From positions 7,574-71,573 of the forward strand of contig CAZSTG010000003.1 of assembly GCA_964609895.1 (NCBI GenBank): a stretch of 64,000 bases of DNA, in the 5' to 3' direction. Source of the DNA: an uncultured Gammaproteobacteria bacterium. GTDB taxonomy: Bacteria > Patescibacteriota > Microgenomatia > UBA10105 > UBA927. The notes beneath the pieces were generated by a model. That model was not told the DNA's origin, made no database searches, and saw only the letters and a list, made by a program, of their open reading frames with translations. Position numbers and translations under genes: made by a program. Positions 49,569 through 58,262 of the stretch are shown in pieces; positions within the stretch are counted from its first letter, which is position 1, and each line of letters begins with the position of its first letter.

Positions 49569-50738
49569 ATGCTGATTAAACCGGAGATTGCGAGATTTGC
49601 AAAAATAAAAGTTGTCGGCATTGGAGGCGGAGGAAGCAATGCAGTCAATTCCATGATTTCGGCCGGCACGATCAAGGGGGTTGATTTTATCGCCGTCAAC
49701 ACGGACGCGCAGGCACTGCTGACTAATCTGGCACAGACAAAAATTCAAATAGGCGACAATGTGACACGGGGTTTAGGTGCAGGCGGCAATCCCGAAATCG
49801 GCAGACAGGCGGCGGAAGAATCAAGGGAAAAAATCAAGGAATATCTGCGCGACTGCGACATGGTATTTATTACGTGCGGTGAGGGTGGAGGAACAGGAAC
49901 GGGAGCGGCACCGATATTTGCGGAAATCGCCAAGGAACAGGGTGCACTTACTGTTGCTGTTGTGACAAAACCATTTCGGTTTGAAGGAACGAGACGCATG
50001 GTGTCTGCTGAAGAAGGCATCATGAATCTGAAAGACAAAGTCGACACACTCATCGTTATTCCCAATCAACGACTGCTGGAAGTAATCGATAAAAAACTGA
50101 CATTGCTTGAGGCATTCCGCGTTGCCGATTCTGTGCTCAGTCAGGGCGTACAGGGAATATCTGATCTGATCACTATGCCGGGACTCATTAACGTGGATTT
50201 TGCGGATGTCAGGTCTATTATGACGAATGCGGGATCGGCGCTTATGGGGATAGGAACCGGCGTCGGAGAAAACAGGGCGGCGACAGCTGCAAGAACAGCG
50301 GTTGCTTCTCCACTTTTGGAAATGTCCGTTGAGGGGGCAAAAGGTGTGCTCTTTAATATTACCGGAGGAACTGATTTGACGATGGCGGAGGTTGATGAGG
50401 CTGCAAAACAGATTGCAGGTGCGGTAGATCCGGATGCAAATATTATTTTTGGTGCAACCATTGATGAAAATCTGGTCGATCAGGTAAAAATATCCGTGAT
50501 AGCAACGGGTTTTGATGAAACCAAGAAACGGCTTCGGGAAATGTCGGCCGCACGGGGCGCGACACAGACGGGTTTCGGGCAGGGGTACACACCGCGTCCG
50601 ATGCAGCCGGTACAACAGGTGCAGCCTGTTTCCCAGCAGCCGTCGCAGGCGTCGTCACCCGTGTTTACTCCGCCGAACGATGTTCCTCCGGAGGATGATG
50701 AATTTGAAATCCCCGCATTCCTACGGCAGAGGAATTAG
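49569..50738 (+). CDS. ftsZ: cell division GTPase FtsZ
   Basis: [15 protein letters not shown], tubulin signature [10 protein letters not shown] and NVDFAD motifs. C-terminal conserved peptide [13 protein letters not shown]. Confidence 0.95.
50707..50738. repeat. attL-like direct repeat at the ftsZ 3' end (AAATCCCCGCATTCCTACGGCAGAGGAATTAG)
   Basis: 27/32 nt identical to 56366-56397. Both copies translate to IPAFLRQRN-stop in the ftsZ frame, and the mismatches are synonymous. Confidence 0.6.
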
Positions 50739-50917
50739 GACAGAACGCTCCAATCTCTCCATGCTACCATATGAGACTATATTTTGAGGTCTTCATAACG
50801 GAACAGTTTGAAGATTTAAGTTGATTTTTGAGGCTAAAAGTGGTAGTATATACATGTTGTTCCTCGTAGAGCTTCTGTATATTTTTACCACAAATTTCAG
50901 ACTGTTTCGGATAATGT

Positions 50918-51940
50918 ATGTTATTCGATGCAGAAGACTTCAAGCGATTTATAATGATTAAAGAAGGTCTTGATACTGGCTCAATACGTCATTGTATGAG
51001 TAGGTTTAGGCTGTTTAATCAATGGTTATATGCTTCGGGTTTAGAACTCAATAAAGATTGTGTAGAAAGGTATTTTTCAGAATTAAAAGAAAAAGGATTA
51101 AAGAATAATTCGCTTAACACATATAGCTTCATGTTTCGTCATTTGGTTTCTTATTGCAAAGATAGAGGTTTACCCAGCGATTTTTTTGATGGCTTTAAGT
51201 CATTCAAGAAAACTAAGCCTGATATTATTATTTTTACTCAAGAAGAGATTGAGAAAATTCTTACTACCGATCTTACATACGGTTTGTTTCATGGAAAATC
51301 TTCTGACTTTTTAAATTTTCGATATAAGACAATGACCATGTTTCTTGCATATACTGGTTGCCGATATTCAGAGGTAGCAGAATTAACAGTGAAGCACGTT
51401 GATATTAGTGCAGGAAGAGCAACATTTGTGAATACCAAAACAAATGAAAATCGGACAGCGTATTTTACCGAACCATTGAAGAGTAATATAAAGAAATTAA
51501 TTGAGAATAGACAACCGAACGATAGAATATTTTGTAATTCCTCAAACAAACAAATTCAGGTTACAGAATACAGTGGTGATTTAAAAAGAAGAGCAATAGA
51601 AGCAGGAGTCACAAAGAGAACGTTCCCCCATAACTTCAGACATAGTTATATAACCCACATGTTGGAGGCAGGTGTACCTATTACAGAGGTCGCAACGCTC
51701 GTCGGACATAAAGACATACAAACAACCTATTCAACGTATATGCATTTAGCTGATAAAACACTTGAACGAGCTGCGATGCGTCATCCGATGGTACGGAAAA
51801 ACGTTGATCCGAAAGAAATTTTGAAGATGATAAAAGAAATGATAGAAGGATATCATTTGGAAAATGACAATCGATTTACATATAAAATTGAAGATAAAGG
51901 AGAGGAATTAAATATAAGCATTTCAAGATCATATGAATAA
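50918..51940 (+). CDS. int: tyrosine-type site-specific recombinase/integrase
   Basis: C-terminal catalytic region with R...HNFRHSYITHMLEAGVPITEVATLVGHKDIQTTYSTYMH (R-H-R-Y family signature). Confidence 0.85.
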   Translation: MLFDAEDFKRFIMIKEGLDTGSIRHCMSRFRLFNQWLYASGLELNKDCVERYFSELKEKGLKNNSLNTYSFMFRHLVSYCKDRGLPSDFFDGFKSFKKTKPDIIIFTQEEIEKILTTDLTYGLFHGKSSDFLNFRYKTMTMFLAYTGCRYSEVAELTVKHVDISAGRATFVNTKTNENRTAYFTEPLKSNIKKLIENRQPNDRIFCNSSNKQIQVTEYSGDLKRRAIEAGVTKRTFPHNFRHSYITHMLEAGVPITEVATLVGHKDIQTTYSTYMHLADKTLERAAMRHPMVRKNVDPKEILKMIKEMIEGYHLENDNRFTYKIEDKGEELNISISRSYE

Positions 51941-52493
51941 TACCTATTTAGCTAAACCAATTACATGGGATACGATACGTACTCGGTTTGATCCGCAACA
52001 TGTTCAATTCGAAGCTGAAAAAGAATTGAAAACAATCACACCAGAAAAAAGGGAATTCGAAGGCACAACAAATATATATAAAGCGTTCACTCTTAAAGAG
52101 TTCGAGAATGGAGTTTTATTGAGTGAAACATTGAAAGAAGAATATAAGACTTTTGCTATTGACCTTAGTCGAAATATTCAGAAAGAATACAATTGTTCAA
52201 CTGTTAGTCAAAAAGCTACAGCGGAGCTAATAGCTTGTTCGTATAGTCGGATATTACAAACGACAATGATGATTACTCGATATCTCAATATTGGCTCGGT
52301 GTCGGACAGTGGAATTAAATATCTAGCTGTGATGTCTAAAGAGCTTGATCGAGCACAGAGGCACTATACAACGGCATTACAAACCTTGTTTATGCTCAAA
52401 CAACCACCATTGAATATTACTGTAAAGGCAGAAACAGCGAATATAGCTAATAACCAGTTAATACAACAAAATAACCACGTTAAGCCCATATGA
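51933..52493 (+). CDS. hypothetical protein (element cargo)
   Basis: 186-aa ORF overlapping the integrase stop by 8 nt. No motif recognised. Confidence 0.4.
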   Translation: MNNTYLAKPITWDTIRTRFDPQHVQFEAEKELKTITPEKREFEGTTNIYKAFTLKEFENGVLLSETLKEEYKTFAIDLSRNIQKEYNCSTVSQKATAELIACSYSRILQTTMMITRYLNIGSVSDSGIKYLAVMSKELDRAQRHYTTALQTLFMLKQPPLNITVKAETANIANNQLIQQNNHVKPI

Positions 52494-52768
52494 TTACTCA
52501 TAATTCTTTGGTGGCGGAAAACTGTCTAAAAATACGAATAGATGATTATGTGCGTCAGGTAAGAAATAGTCTTAAAAAAGTTATTATAGAAGCTCAGATA
52601 AATGTAAATGGCGACAACATTAAACTTTGTGAATCAAATACAAGATTTGGCGGATCAAGATTATGGTTTGAATGTCCGTTATGTAAAAGGAGACGAGAGA
52701 TTCTATATATCAATTCAACAGGCAAAAAAATAGTTTGTCGAAAATGTATCAGATTAAATTATAAGTAA
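52490..52768 (+). CDS. hypothetical protein with C-terminal CxxC...CxxC zinc ribbon
   Basis: ATGA overlap with the upstream ORF. CPLCKRRREILYINSTGKKIVCRKC. Confidence 0.4.
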   Translation: MITHNSLVAENCLKIRIDDYVRQVRNSLKKVIIEAQINVNGDNIKLCESNTRFGGSRLWFECPLCKRRREILYINSTGKKIVCRKCIRLNYK

Positions 52769-52846: not shown

Positions 52847-54163
52847 ATGAAACAAAAACTTATTACCTTCATGTTTTTTTCTTGGTTGTCTTCTATTTTA
52901 TTCTTTATTGCATTAATTGTTTTAATGGTTATTGCAAATATAAGTATACAAAACCATATTGTTGCATGGATTTTATATATGGATATTGGATTTGGTGTTT
53001 TATCTTGTTTAGGATTTTTTACAAGTGTTTTATTAATACATGATCCTGCTTACCAAAAAAATTCAAAGAAAGTTAAACCAATTAAATTTATAACCACGGT
53101 AATAGCATTTATAATATTGTTTATTCTTGTCCCCCGTTTAATATCTGGTCGCTATTTACAAGCAGCCTCAGTATATGCACAAAATGGAGATAGTCAAAAA
53201 GCGATAAATGCTTATAAAAATGCTAAAATTGCGTTACGTTGGACTATTTCGGATACTTCTGAAGTAAAGAAAATCGATAAATTAATTGCAGAGACCCCAA
53301 CAGATTGTGTAATCAACGAAGTACAGGTTAAGGCTACAAAGGAAAAATGCGATGAGTGGGTAAACTATCTTAAAACATCATTAACTCCAACTCCGAAACA
53401 AACCACCTTTACTTATCCATGCACAGGAGGAAATTCAAAACAAACGATTTACGTAAAAGATAATAGTGACTGTCAACAAAATTATACAGATTGTGAACTT
53501 AATGATGGTACATGGAAAGTAATGGCAAAAAACGATTGTAATATTGCTCAAGGAAGAACTGGTTCAGGAGGAAAGATTGACTGTGTCGGACCAGATGGAA
53601 AACATCTCCAGTTAACACAGCAAGAGTGTGACAATTTTAATGCTGCTTGGGGAAAGCCTAGAAGTGGTGGTAATAATAATGCGACAACAAACGTGCGAAC
53701 ATCTGCGACAGCAAACATTAGATCAGCACCCGCAAATAATGGCATGATTCAGTGTTCTTATTCAAACGGAGAATATCAATATAACTATGGTTTTATCACA
53801 ATTGAAGAATGCATGGTAAAAAATAATCAGTATTGGGATTCATTAAAAGTACCATCAACCATAGGTTCAAATACTCAACCAACTACTACGCCATCAAACA
53901 ATCAAACTACAGTTAATACGTCAGCATGTTATAGCCAGTATAATGCAGATGTTCAAAGGGCAAATAGTTATGGAGGTAATGTTGGTGCAAGTATGAAAGA
54001 GATGGCACAAAATAATTTATCATACTGTTTATCCTCAGGAAATGTAACTGCAGTAGGAAATGTTACAAAAGAGCCACCAAGAGATGCGAATGGAAAACTT
54101 TGTTCTGACTATACATCTGAAGAGATGGTAATCGCATTATCAATGGGTTGTCCTTATCCCTGA
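52847..54163 (+). CDS. membrane-anchored Cys-rich low-complexity protein (element cargo)
   Basis: Three N-terminal TM helices, one TPR-like stretch, then T/N/S/Q-rich extracytoplasmic region with at least 12 Cys. Confidence 0.45.
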   Translation: MKQKLITFMFFSWLSSILFFIALIVLMVIANISIQNHIVAWILYMDIGFGVLSCLGFFTSVLLIHDPAYQKNSKKVKPIKFITTVIAFIILFILVPRLISGRYLQAASVYAQNGDSQKAINAYKNAKIALRWTISDTSEVKKIDKLIAETPTDCVINEVQVKATKEKCDEWVNYLKTSLTPTPKQTTFTYPCTGGNSKQTIYVKDNSDCQQNYTDCELNDGTWKVMAKNDCNIAQGRTGSGGKIDCVGPDGKHLQLTQQECDNFNAAWGKPRSGGNNNATTNVRTSATANIRSAPANNGMIQCSYSNGEYQYNYGFITIEECMVKNNQYWDSLKVPSTIGSNTQPTTTPSNNQTTVNTSACYSQYNADVQRANSYGGNVGASMKEMAQNNLSYCLSSGNVTAVGNVTKEPPRDANGKLCSDYTSEEMVIALSMGCPYP

Positions 54164-54371: not shown

Positions 54372-54542
54372 ATGAATTCCCAAGAACAAAAAACAATTGT
54401 TGTCAAAACCAAACCAAAGGTTCTCCCTGTGGAATGTCCAGTGTGTCACAACTTTGGAACAGTTGGATATGCACAAAAAGTCTGTCATGGCTGTGGAGGT
54501 AAGGGGTACATTCTTGTACCGGCTGAGGAGGCGCTACCATGA
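54372..54542 (+). CDS. small zinc-ribbon protein with DnaJ-type CxxCxGxG motif (56 aa; shorter than the ORF-track cutoff)
   Basis: Translated here: MNSQEQKTIVVKTKPKVLPVECPVCHNFGTVGYAQKVCHGCGGKGYILVPAEEALP. ATGA overlap with the next ORF. Confidence 0.4.
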   Translation: MNSQEQKTIVVKTKPKVLPVECPVCHNFGTVGYAQKVCHGCGGKGYILVPAEEALP

Positions 54543-55060: not shown

Positions 55061-55371
55061 ATACCAATGATAGCAGTAAACATTGCTATAGAATCATTCT
55101 AAGAGTGTGGAAGAACGGTGAAAACAGTAAAACGTACCGTACAACAAAATCCAAGCGTTTTTATTCAGTTGTTGAGGCGGAAGATTTTCAAAAAGCCTAT
55201 CTTAAAGTTTCTTACGGTAAAGACAAAACTAACTTCGGTAAGAATGAGGAATTTTATAACGATGGCGACTACATGACCAAGAAAGAGTTAATTGAGGCAT
55301 TCAAAGCCTTCACAGAGCAAAACCGAAGTACAGATAAGGGTTCTACGAGGAACAACTATCGAAACGGCTGA
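55057..55371 (+). CDS. hypothetical protein
   Basis: 104-aa ORF, ATGA overlap with upstream. Lys-rich. Confidence 0.35.
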   Translation: MNTNDSSKHCYRIILRVWKNGENSKTYRTTKSKRFYSVVEAEDFQKAYLKVSYGKDKTNFGKNEEFYNDGDYMTKKELIEAFKAFTEQNRSTDKGSTRNNYRNG

Positions 55372-55553
55372 GGTTTGTGAGTGGGGATTACTAAGGAAAC
55401 TAGTCCCCACGAATGAGACCTTAGGAATGTTAAAATACTATCCTCTTTTGTGAAAATCTGAGGCTGAGTAAAATACTATCGGTCAGTACAAATTAGTTAT
55501 AGGGGAGCGTAGCCTCAGAATCAGGTCGCATTACAAGTATTGTACGACGTTAA

Positions 55554-55976
55554 TTAGTTTACTGGTTTTAGGTTATCGAGAAGTTCCATTTGTTTGCTTT
55601 TAAAATCGAAAGTAATGCGAAATCTATTAAAAAAACATTCATGACCAAGAATGATCGGAGTAGATGGTGGTAATTTGTCAGTAAAATAAAACGGACATAT
55701 TAATTTTGTATTACATACATAAAGTTGAACATTGCCTTTAATTGTTTGTATGGGTTGGTTATTAACACCCTTGAATTCTCTTGTTTTTGTAGGATCAAGC
55801 GTAAGGTTTAATGCTTTTGCTATATCAGTAATACAAAGACACGCATCAGCACCAGAATCTATAAGGGCGACGATAGATTGTTGTATTAATTGATGTGAAG
55901 ATGGATTGCCTAATCTAATCTGTATCCAAGGTTTATAGACATCTTGTTGTGGTGAAAAATATGGATATATCGCCAT
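55554..55976 (-). CDS. retropepsin-like (clan AA) aspartyl protease
   Basis: Motif ALIDSGADACLC (hydrophobic-hydrophobic-D-S/T-G-A), and length 140 aa, typical of single-domain dimeric retropepsins. Confidence 0.55.
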   Translation of the reverse strand: MAIYPYFSPQQDVYKPWIQIRLGNPSSHQLIQQSIVALIDSGADACLCITDIAKALNLTLDPTKTREFKGVNNQPIQTIKGNVQLYVCNTKLICPFYFTDKLPPSTPIILGHECFFNRFRITFDFKSKQMELLDNLKPVN

Positions 55977-55978
55977 AT

Positions 55979-56164
55979 CTAAGTAACAAATCCAAGATAA
56001 TTAGCAGCAGCGGGTACAAGTAAAATATCTTTTTGTAGTTTTGTCTTTTGGGTTATAGAATTAAACGATTTAGAATAAGCCACAACTTTATTTTGTTTTT
56101 TGTTGTAGGCAATCCAACCTGATTTATATTTTTGAAGGTGAGAAGTTAGATCAACTATTTTCAT
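55979..56164 (-). CDS. small hypothetical protein upstream of the protease
   Basis: 61-aa ORF ending 3 nt before the protease start on the same strand. Confidence 0.3.
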   Translation of the reverse strand: MKIVDLTSHLQKYKSGWIAYNKKQNKVVAYSKSFNSITQKTKLQKDILLVPAAANYLGFVT

Positions 56165-56365
56165 ATATTCTTACTATATAGATTATATATCTTTTGGTCA
56201 ATTATACCACGATCTGGATTGTTAGAACAATAAAATATACTATTCAGTTAATCTATTTGATTTAATTTTGTTACTCTGATACATTCTTTTTGAAGACTTA
56301 AAAATGTATTGAATCACATTGGTATCTTTGGGAAAGATTGAAGCTAAGAAATAATCCTGTCCTAT

Positions 56366-56397
56366 AAATCCCCGCATTCCTCAGGCAGCGGAATTGA
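56366..56397. repeat. attR-like direct repeat (AAATCCCCGCATTCCTCAGGCAGCGGAATTGA), probably the displaced native ftsZ 3' end
   Basis: Preceded by an in-frame TAA. Encodes IPAFLRQRN-stop. Followed by the hairpin GAATGCACAT...ATGTACATTC (56458-56484). Confidence 0.6.
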
Positions 56398-56492
56398 TGT
56401 TTGTTACATAAAGAATTTTTTTCTTCCTTGTTCTGCTTGGTCGGTCATCGTTTTTTTGAATGCACATACAGCAGATGTACATTCTTTATGTA

Positions 56493-56521
56493 TTGACTGT
56501 CATTGTTTTTAGAGCTACTAT
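56493..56521 (+). promoter_or_regulatory. sigma70-like promoter TTGACT-N17-TACTAT upstream of nrdJ
   Basis: Read directly from sequence. The first in-frame ATG downstream is 56556. Confidence 0.4.
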
Positions 56522-56555
56522 TGCGTTTTATGGCGTTCATATAAGCTATTTATAT

Positions 56556-58262
56556 ATGAAAGAATTCGTTACATCGAGCGGTGTAGAAAAAATGCTGCAT
56601 GAAGGAAAAATCATCGGCGATCATGAAAAACCACATGATATGTTTCGCCGTGTAGTTGATACTGTGTTTAACATCGAAAAACAATGGCAGAGTAGTCCGG
56701 AGGAGGTTGACAGGTACAGAACAGTATTTGAGAATCTGACCATCAGTAAAGCAATTTCCCTCGGCAGCCCTGTACTTACGAATGCCGGACGGGACGAACA
56801 TAATCAGTTTGCACTTTCTTCCTGTGTTGTTATACCTGTAGATTTAAGAAAAATTGATGAGGCGACGGTAAAAATTAAGGGATATTATCAACAGAACATG
56901 GGATCCGGTTTCGATTTTACTCCGTATGAAAATCCGGTTCAGTTGCTTTTGTGGCTGAATGAATTAGCAGATAAAGAAACGCAGACAGGACGATATGACA
57001 GATACATTGGAAACATCGGAAATCTTCACATTTCACATCCCAAAATACGGGAGTTTATTGGGGTGAAACGTACCAACAAAATTGCGCATTTCAATATTTC
57101 AGTAGATATTGATGACGCGTTTATGCAGGCTGTGAAACGGCACGATGTGTATCAACTGGCCGACGGAACATCCGTGGATGCGGCAACATTGCTTCACGAT
57201 ATTGCTGAAAGCGCGCATTATAACGGAGATCCCGGAATTCTATCTTTGGAGCGAATGAACAGAGATAATCCATTGAAAGAGGTTAGTCCGTATACATCTG
57301 TTCCTCCTTGTTCCGAAATGGGGTTGGCGCCGGGAGAAACATGTCAATTCGGATATATTAATCTGTCAAAGTTTGTTGTGGACGGACACATTGATTACAA
57401 GCGTTTATTTGTCGCATCATCCGTGATGACACGTGCTCTTGATAATGCCATAGAAATAGGAGTGTCCAGATATCCCGACATGGAAAGCAGCAGGTTGGCT
57501 TTGCTGAAGCGAAAGATTGGCATAGGGGTATGCGGATTGGCAGACACTTTCATTCAGTTGAATTTGCCGTATGGATCGGAAGAAAGTTTGCATGTTGCCA
57601 AAAATATGCTGTCCTGTATCAATTACGCATCTAAGGCAACATCCGTGACATTGTCTGAACAGCGCGGTTCCTGTCAGGCGATGCAAGACAGTGCACACAA
57701 TGAGTATTACCACGGGTTTATTGAGGAGCGGTATGCACACCATCCGACGGATATAGTCAGTACGGCCAACTGGGAACAACTTGCCGGATATATCAGAAGA
57801 ACAGGACATTTGCGTAATATTCTTACCACAGCGTTACCTCCGACGGGAAGAACGTCAATTCTTTTGGGGGTGACTCCAAGTATAGAACCATTGTTTTCAA
57901 CCCGATCATTGAATGAAAATACGCAGGCAGTTATTAATGATTTTGTTCATGCCCACGCCGATAACGGCGCATCGGATGCGGTACTGCATCGAGCAGAAAC
58001 AGAGGGAACGTTTCAAACATCACCGCTTGACGGTAAAGAAGTGTTAAGAACAGTGAAAGAGATATCCGCAAAGGAACAACTAGACATGATCGCTGCAATA
58101 TCCGGCGTGTATGACGAAGCAGTATCCAAAACGGTGAATTTGCCTCGTACCGCTACAGTAGATGATGTTGCTTCTATCTTTATGCACGCATATGATTTGG
58201 GTTTGAAAAATATATCCGTATACAGGGACGGCAGTTATGAAAACCAACCTGTCAGCTTATGA
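56556..58262 (+). CDS. nrdJ: ribonucleotide reductase, class II (adenosylcobalamin-dependent, NrdJ-like, short monomeric form)
   Basis: ALPPTGRTSILLGVTPSIEP (RNR finger-loop region) and C-terminal TVNLPRTATVDDVASIFMHAYDLGLKNISVYRDGS. Start set to Met 33 of ORF 56460, because the first 32 codons lie over a hairpin/promoter region. Confidence 0.75.
   Translation: MKEFVTSSGVEKMLHEGKIIGDHEKPHDMFRRVVDTVFNIEKQWQSSPEEVDRYRTVFENLTISKAISLGSPVLTNAGRDEHNQFALSSCVVIPVDLRKIDEATVKIKGYYQQNMGSGFDFTPYENPVQLLLWLNELADKETQTGRYDRYIGNIGNLHISHPKIREFIGVKRTNKIAHFNISVDIDDAFMQAVKRHDVYQLADGTSVDAATLLHDIAESAHYNGDPGILSLERMNRDNPLKEVSPYTSVPPCSEMGLAPGETCQFGYINLSKFVVDGHIDYKRLFVASSVMTRALDNAIEIGVSRYPDMESSRLALLKRKIGIGVCGLADTFIQLNLPYGSEESLHVAKNMLSCINYASKATSVTLSEQRGSCQAMQDSAHNEYYHGFIEERYAHHPTDIVSTANWEQLAGYIRRTGHLRNILTTALPPTGRTSILLGVTPSIEPLFSTRSLNENTQAVINDFVHAHADNGASDAVLHRAETEGTFQTSPLDGKEVLRTVKEISAKEQLDMIAAISGVYDEAVSKTVNLPRTATVDDVASIFMHAYDLGLKNISVYRDGSYENQPVSL

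Follow-up and report, generated by a model that had tools for sequence, protein, structure and literature searches.

A near-obligate pair of DUF5678 and retropepsin-like protease genes forms a mobile cassette with a possible toxin-antitoxin-like or defence role

We analysed a pair of adjacent minus-strand genes in a 64,000-nucleotide (nt) stretch of contig CAZSTG010000003.1, hereafter the window, in which the pair occurs in one copy only. It is carried by a 5.7-kb integrative element at the 3' end of ftsZ. The downstream gene (55554-55976, minus strand) encodes a retropepsin-like (clan AA) aspartic protease of 140 amino acids (aa) and was recognised from its open reading frame (ORF) together with profile and model matches. 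The upstream gene (55979-56164, minus strand), taken from the list of ORFs, encodes a 61-aa partner of the DUF5678 (PF18929) family with a core at about residues 17-51 and the C-terminal tail ILLVPAAANYLGFVT. The original prediction had described a 140-aa ORF with a clan AA active-site motif. Both were confirmed: the motif ALIDSGADACLC represents residues 37-48 of the protease, and the codon of the catalytic D40 is at 55857-55859. In the profile alignment to solved structures, the catalytic motif D40-S41-G42-A43 (codons at 55848-55859, minus strand) falls on the catalytic DTGA of the equine infectious anaemia virus (EIAV) protease and the DSGA of DDI1/2. The second retropepsin motif, hydrophobic-hydrophobic-Gly (I109-L110-G111, codons at 55644-55652, minus strand), falls on the ILG of the EIAV protease (ILGRD). 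A small ORF 3 nt upstream in the same orientation had also been proposed as a partner. Its position and orientation hold, but the spacing read from the sequence is 2 nt: the TAG stop of the 61-aa ORF is followed by AT and then by the ATG of the 140-aa ORF. A programmed frameshift or readthrough joining both ORFs was considered and rejected, as inspection by eye revealed no slippery heptamer at the junction and an offset as in ordinary overlapping genes. Compared with three homologous cassettes, the ratio of nonsynonymous to synonymous substitution rates (dN/dS) is 0.04-0.14 for the protease and 0.10-0.21 for the partner. Both genes are thus under purifying selection, and these low values identify them as real genes.

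On its own, the window protease stays below the Pfam gathering thresholds. It scores 19.0 bits (E 0.002) with Asp_protease_2 (PF13650; threshold 24.3) and 17.6 bits (E 0.006) with gag-asp_proteas (PF13975; threshold 28.2), and the RVP match is also sub-threshold (E 0.03). The sole match in NCBIfam is TIGR03698 (clan_AA_DTGF) at E 0.017, far under the cutoff. In PHROGs, there was no match for the protease and none better than E 0.016 for the partner. Among 123 relatives, 101 match Asp_protease_2, 76 match gag-asp_proteas, and 36 match RVP at E up to 0.01, the best value being 3e-10. The affinity to Asp_protease_2 and gag-asp_proteas, the two profiles that the original prediction had named for a check, thus holds for members of the family, but not, at the curated thresholds, for the window protein itself. 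A family profile was started from the window protein and four close homologues. Searched against 1.84 billion proteins, it matched 844 cluster representatives with E values of at most 1e-3; the family therefore comprises at least 844 clusters at 50% identity. Nearly all members are stand-alone proteins of 125-150 aa. DSGA is present in 125 of 153 proteins (the listed matches plus the four close homologues). In an alignment of 123 members, D40, G42, and G111 are invariant, and Y6, P16, L38, S41, A43, D44, F98, F115, and F116 are conserved to at least 90%. Compared with solved structures, the family profile matches the EIAV protease (9e-6) and DDI2/DDI1 (1.7e-5), and also the feline immunodeficiency virus (FIV) protease, Ty3, and APRc.

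The AlphaFold2 model of the protease, built from a 121-sequence alignment, has a mean predicted local distance difference test (pLDDT) score of 92.2 and a predicted template modelling (pTM) score of 0.86. Foldseek against the PDB returned DDI2, many proteases of human immunodeficiency virus 1 (HIV-1), the EIAV protease (TMt 0.72), and APRc (5c9f), all with a probability of 1.00. The superposition on APRc, with TM scores of 0.65/0.68 over 136 columns, is among the best over the whole length. The 140-aa protein is a retropepsin-like clan AA aspartic protease with a single-lobe fold and an intact catalytic motif. This is what the original prediction had claimed, since the predicted fold matches retropepsins and DSGA lies on the catalytic loop. 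Retropepsins are active only as homodimers, to which each chain contributes one catalytic Asp. The modelled fold and the invariance of the catalytic residues speak for an active enzyme, which by the rule of the family would be a homodimer.

With the proteases of HIV-1, EIAV, and FIV and the RVP domain of DDI1/DDI2, the window protease shares a single lobe of about 100-140 residues, the D-S/T-G-A loop, and the hydrophobic-hydrophobic-Gly motif. The terminal strands, which form the dimer interface in retropepsins, are likewise predicted in its model. Unlike these proteins, it is a stand-alone protein and not part of Gag-Pol or of a protein with ubiquitin-like and UBA domains, it has an N-terminal extension with the nearly invariant residues Y6 and P16, its identity to them is only 15-23%, and its family is paired with a DUF5678 gene. 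Among bacterial clan AA enzymes, APRc/RC1339 of Rickettsia and RloA and RimB of Pseudomonas are comparable in size. APRc, an enzyme that processes autotransporters, is embedded in the outer membrane (PMC4140852). Signal peptides are present in the RloA proteins, which are secreted, and RimB is encoded in the RimABK operon (PMC11957051). In contrast to APRc and RloA, the window protease has no apparent signal peptide or transmembrane segment in its sequence, and DUF5678 is the sole constant neighbour of its family. In one protein of 745 aa (P0129), the same retropepsin family is fused at the C-terminus to a large P-loop nucleoside triphosphatase (NTPase) with the Walker A motif GKAGSGKTT. This architecture may point to a conflict-related or ATPase-coupled role.

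The partner, searched alone, reaches 16 bits (E 0.011) with Pfam DUF5678, for which the cutoff is 23.2. A hidden Markov model (HMM) of the upstream partners from seven pairs finds it at 3e-25, a value that is partly circular as the window partner is one of the seven. DUF5678 is matched by 79 of 80 aligned partner relatives, and all 120 partner-profile matches listed carry PF18929. The window partner is thus assigned to DUF5678 by transitive homology and not by the curated cutoff. Its AlphaFold2 model has a pLDDT of 81, with a beta-beta-alpha-beta core at 87-92 and a tail at 48-68. Structural comparison gave no significant neighbour among solved structures. In the partner alignment, Y13, W17, and A19 form the conserved core, and the tail contains a nearly invariant proline (P51), followed after 5-6 residues by an aromatic-hydrophobic pair that is often at the very C-terminus. 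The tail pattern can be written as hydrophobic-hydrophobic-x-x-[VI]-P-x5-aromatic-hydrophobic. Databases label the two families only as "aspartyl protease family protein" and "DUF5678."

The strict pairing and the gene order of DUF5678 and the protease are the main result. Relatives were collected in a scan of one genome per species with a 16-sequence alignment as the query, which gave 121 relatives, with 79 loci returned. In 88 loci with 90 protease ORFs, searched with local HMMs, a DUF5678 ORF (E below 1e-2) is located directly upstream and on the same strand of 87 protease ORFs. Two of the remaining three have weaker DUF5678 matches, and the partner in the third (L066) is convergent and downstream. 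In addition, seven contexts were fetched separately, with protease identities of 22-78% to the window protein. All of them have DUF5678 upstream on the same strand, and their other neighbours all differ (YqeY, a helicase-like protein, a type ISP restriction enzyme, a caspase-like peptidase, MNT/HNH/RHH-PIN, and LexA, for example). Hence, the small upstream ORF is a real and conserved partner, as had been supposed from the window. Among 58 measured pairs, the commonest gaps are -4 nt (21 pairs), -8 nt (10), and -1 nt (5), and the two genes usually overlap by 1-8 nt. The two proteins co-diverge, with a mirror-tree correlation of r = 0.81 compared with a maximum of 0.12 in 1000 permutations. Fusions of partner and protease were not found among the long matches, which are mis-called starts except for the one P-loop NTPase fusion described above. 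The hosts are mostly Patescibacteria (Roizman-, Levy-, Gottesman-, Davies-, Curtiss-, Doudna-, Kerfeld-, and Saccharibacteria among others), and further hosts are Omnitrophota, Chloroflexota, Elusimicrobia, Cloacimonadota, Micrarchaeota, and Methanosarcinales. The literature searched contained no paper that treats the function of DUF5678 or describes its pairing with a retropepsin. The comparative result provides the first functional context for DUF5678, namely a near-obligate, mobile two-gene unit.

The pair is an autonomous, horizontally mobile cassette and merely cargo of the 5.7-kb element. In two loci whose protease is >90% identical to that of the window (L089 and L090), the nucleotide identity of 82-83% is confined to 55433-56249, and the flanks are unrelated. 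This homology unit (55433-56249, minus strand), defined by the comparison with L089 and L090, includes the promoter region, the two genes, and about 120 nt of 3' non-coding sequence. Near-identical cassettes adjoin sortase and HTH_17 genes, and a cassette copy with 78% identity has only the two ORFs in common with the window. The 149 flanking genes of the relatives fall into 140 Pfam families without a recurrent third gene; the few repeated neighbour families include PIN (3), DUF433 (2), HicB-like (2), and HTH_3 (2). An integrase-like gene occurs within 3 kb in only 2 of the 88 loci, and homologues of any other gene of the element were found near none of them. The original prediction had framed the pair as serving this element, a view that is not supported by these neighbourhoods and the near-identical cassettes elsewhere. 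Several copies can reside in one genome or locus. Three pairs are located within 6.4 kb in a Curtissbacteria metagenome-assembled genome (MAG; L026), two loci (L018 and L051) come from the same Levyibacteriota MAG, and two further loci (L052 and L025) have two partner genes each. Among the individually inspected contexts, the sole clear defence-gene neighbour was seen in a Kerfeldbacteria MAG (L004, 562-3690), in which the pair is immediately downstream of the gene for a type ISP restriction-modification (RM) enzyme.

Directly upstream of the partner gene, a consensus scan found the promoter-like site TTGACC-17-TATAGT (56173-56201, minus strand; 10/12 matches to the consensus). The number of promoter-like sites in the region is not above that in shuffled sequences, and the site is weak on its own. 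It is conserved in L089 and L090, and its TTGAC part is present in L003. Further upstream is a perfect 6+2+6 palindrome of 14 bp, ATTGTTCTAACAAT (56218-56231, minus strand), which overlaps a weak -35 element and is located 18 nt before TGgTATAAT. As judged from its position and its conservation (13 of 14 positions in L089 and L090), the palindrome is possibly an operator. Adjoining the 3' end of the protease gene is a non-coding segment of about 115 nt (55433-55550, no strand assigned), which is conserved in L089, L090, and a further locus, L093, and may be a recombination joint, a regulatory site, or a small RNA. In the L093 copy, the adjoining 55 nt are not protease-like. A search of 55200-56500 against Rfam gave no match, and the 3' segment folds no better than shuffled sequences (z about -1.1 on either strand). 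Since it lacks the terminal core motifs, the segment was rejected as an integron attC-like site.

We propose that the pair is a toxin-antitoxin (TA)-like or defence cassette, the dimeric protease of which acts in the cytoplasm and is held in check by DUF5678, and we give this reading a probability of about 40%. The downstream gene would yield a cytoplasmic retropepsin-type protease that is active only as a homodimer. The upstream gene is probably translationally coupled to it because the two genes usually overlap. The cognate DUF5678 protein would bind the protease and keep it inactive, and the likeliest contact would be its conserved C-terminal tail, which could fill the substrate cleft as a pseudo-substrate or block dimerisation. 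Degradation, loss of the cassette, or infection would remove or displace the partner and thereby set the protease free. The free protease would then cleave cellular or invader proteins and lead to a growth stop, following the logic of TA or abortive-infection systems. The proposal was made because the pairing, the overlap with the small gene first, the co-divergence, the independence of context, the multiple copies, the carriage on an element, and the occasional clustering with TA genes resemble TA and defence cassettes. Of the functions named in the original prediction, that of a toxin/effector module appears to fit the comparative evidence best. The hypothesis is testable: the protease alone should be toxic, the partner should rescue, and a D40A substitution should abolish the effect.

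The likeness to type II TA systems is seen in the two-gene operon with the smaller gene first and overlapping stop and start codons, in the patchy, multi-copy, and context-independent distribution, in the carriage on an integrative element, and in the occasional clustering with PIN, DUF433, and HicB genes. In contrast to type II systems, the putative antitoxin has no recognisable DNA-binding domain and the putative toxin is an aspartic protease. Related arrangements are the PADLOC phage-defence candidates PDC-M08 and PDC-M52, which, like the type ISP neighbour in L004, link the family to conflict systems. Each is a two-gene A>>B cassette predicted from its embedding in BREX, DISARM, or type I RM loci ("guilt-by-embedding"; Payne et al. 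2024; bioRxiv 10.1101/2024.01.29.577857). PDC candidates in general mostly still await validation (PMC12988326), and the literature searched contained no validation of PDC-M08 or PDC-M52. Their B component is likewise retropepsin-like and stand-alone, with a length of about 127-139 aa, and the order with the small gene first is the same as in the cassette. Among 123 family members, 91 match the PDC-M52 B model (best E 2.6e-9) and 59 match that of PDC-M08 (1.9e-10), and a full-length match pairs residues 7-128 with 6-125 of 139. A small stand-alone retropepsin-domain protein is also known from type III CRISPR loci of Sulfolobales (Saci_1895, PADLOC PEPT_D; PMC3973734). Saci_1895 is accompanied by CRISPR genes, whereas the window family is accompanied by DUF5678, and only 1 of 123 family members matches the PEPT_D model (E 0.006). 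By these profile matches, the CRISPR-linked retropepsin is assigned to a different family.

Several observations weigh against a TA-like or defence role. The window protease itself matches the PDC-M52 B model at E 0.019 only. The window partner has no match to the PDC A models, nor has any of 6 relatives at E up to 10, and 1 of 80 relatives matches at E 0.008; in this comparison, the HMMER filters drop most matches above about 0.1. Because of the weak B-model value and the missing A-model matches, the pair is, as judged from profiles, a sister arrangement to PDC-M08 and PDC-M52 and not a member of either. We know of no TA system with an aspartic-protease toxin. None surfaced in the literature searched, and one major TA survey does not mention any. 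Partners gave no match to helix-turn-helix (HTH), ribbon-helix-helix, or AbrB models and have no recognisable DNA-binding fold. Most neighbours of the cassette are housekeeping genes and not defence genes. Moreover, no relatives were among 76 pattern matches in IMG/VR viral contigs, and tblastn with the window protease and P0160 gave no match in PLSDB plasmids or INPHARED phages. Classic mobile elements therefore show no obvious enrichment of the cassette. Any tightly linked operon, and not just a TA system, would be expected to show co-divergence and gene overlap. Finally, toxicity, inhibition, and interaction, and with them a role in addiction or defence, are predictions from comparison.

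A broader version of the TA-like reading would make the DUF5678-retropepsin pair an unrecognised and widespread class of protease-based TA or abortive-infection systems, the first with an aspartic effector. The partner would be a pseudo-substrate or dimerisation-blocking inhibitor, and the family would represent a large set of free-standing, mobile retropepsins in prokaryotes, with a bearing on how retroelement and DDI1-type proteases originated. We regard this version as doubtful. If a TA-like or defence role were true, aspartic proteases would join the effector repertoire of TA and defence systems. An abundant gene pair in Patescibacteria, the genomes of which are small and poorly annotated, would be explained, PDC-M08 and PDC-M52 would become easier to interpret, and the cassette could yield a compact natural protease-inhibitor pair as a tool.

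The tail of the partner, which an inhibitor would use to block the protease, could instead be its target. DUF5678 would then be a dedicated substrate and the pair a miniature "polyprotein," in which cleavage in or near the tail activates or releases a product. The strict 1:1 pairing and the co-divergence suit a dedicated substrate as well as an inhibitor, the tail with P51 and the aromatic-hydrophobic pair is the most distinctive conserved feature of the partner outside its core, and retropepsins are generally known to favour hydrophobic or aromatic residues at P1/P1', as seen also in the profiling of APRc (PMC4140852). However, no export, modification, or receptor genes recur beside the pair. 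With a tail of only about 10-15 residues, which in many members is the end of the protein, the released peptide would be very short, and a multi-copy, context-free distribution would be unusual for a maturation pathway. We consider a substrate-protease pair unlikely. Regulated housekeeping proteolysis, with DUF5678 as an adaptor, chaperone, or specificity factor that supplies a cytoplasmic protease with substrates or stabilises it, would have an analogue in the cytoplasmic RimB of RimABK and is, in our estimate, quite unlikely. The pair would be of modest interest if it were such an ordinary regulated protease.

Two other explanations tie the cassette to the element that carries it. In the integrative element ICEBs1, ImmR is a repressor and ImmA, a metalloprotease, is the anti-repressor. 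By analogy, the small protein could be a repressor and the protease an anti-repressor that together control excision. The location of the pair at the end of the element, its transcription opposite to the other element genes, and the palindrome in the promoter region are in line with such a switch. Unlike ImmR/ImmA, the partner has no detectable HTH or other DNA-binding fold, and the protease is aspartic. Beyond the window, integrase-like genes accompany only 2 of 88 relatives and the other element genes have no homologues there. In addition, L093, an element with an integrase region of 85% nucleotide identity, shows no cassette in the 13 kb recovered and differs exactly at the cassette junction. 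A regulatory switch is therefore very improbable. The original prediction had further suggested that the protease could mature the Cys-rich membrane or surface protein (438 aa) of the element. The only point in favour is the shared location on the 5.7-kb element. The 438-aa cargo looks membrane-anchored or extracytoplasmic from its sequence, whereas the protease has no apparent signal peptide or membrane segment, and no homologue of the cargo was found near any of the 88 relatives. As near-identical cassettes also occur in unrelated contexts, we hold this explanation to be hardly credible. Both element-bound explanations are contradicted by the comparative data.

The carrier element was recognised as a low-GC island, with a guanine-plus-cytosine (GC) content of 0.30-0.36 compared with 0.45-0.48 in the flanks. 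It is bounded by a direct repeat of 30 nt, the copies of which (50707-50736 and 56366-56395) are identical at 27 of 30 positions. The left copy, attL (50707-50736, plus strand), comprises the last codons of ftsZ (49569-50738), and the right copy, attR (56366-56395, plus strand), still encodes IPAFLRQRN-stop, as read from the sequence. The island is therefore a 5.7-kb integrative element inserted in the 3' end of ftsZ, and the insertion rebuilds the last nine ftsZ codons. A tyrosine integrase gene of the element (50918-51940, plus strand), outside the cassette, matches Pfam Phage_integrase (1.1e-34) and PHROG 1 integrase (1.6e-47). About 200 nt separate the pair from the right repeat. As had been noted in the original prediction, it is the sole minus-strand unit of the element and lies beside attR; the remaining credible genes are all encoded on the plus strand. 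An inverted repeat, GTGGGGATTA / TAGTCCCCAC (55381-55410), forms a terminator-like hairpin between a convergent 104-aa gene and the cassette. Further cargo comprises a 92-aa protein with four Cys (52490-52768), the 438-aa protein with N-terminal membrane segments and a Cys-rich tail (52847-54163), and a 56-aa zinc-ribbon protein with a double CxxC motif (54372-54542). None of the three has a significant match in Pfam, PHROG, or PADLOC.

The sister element L093 is also located downstream of ftsA-ftsZ. It shares 50825-52677 and 55252-55550 of the window and diverges exactly where the protease gene would start; its contig stops 55 nt beyond this junction. Downstream of ftsZ, L093 has three copies of the same att core (at about 3265, 4410, and 7900), and this repetition indicates that different islands are arranged in tandem at a single att site. 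Beyond attR in the window, an ORF of 600 aa (56460-58262) encodes a class II-like ribonucleotide reductase. Its first 30 residues are hydrophobic and of low complexity, and the representative of its 90% cluster has 568 aa. The true start is probably about 32 codons later, and the over-extended start overlaps the region beside attR.

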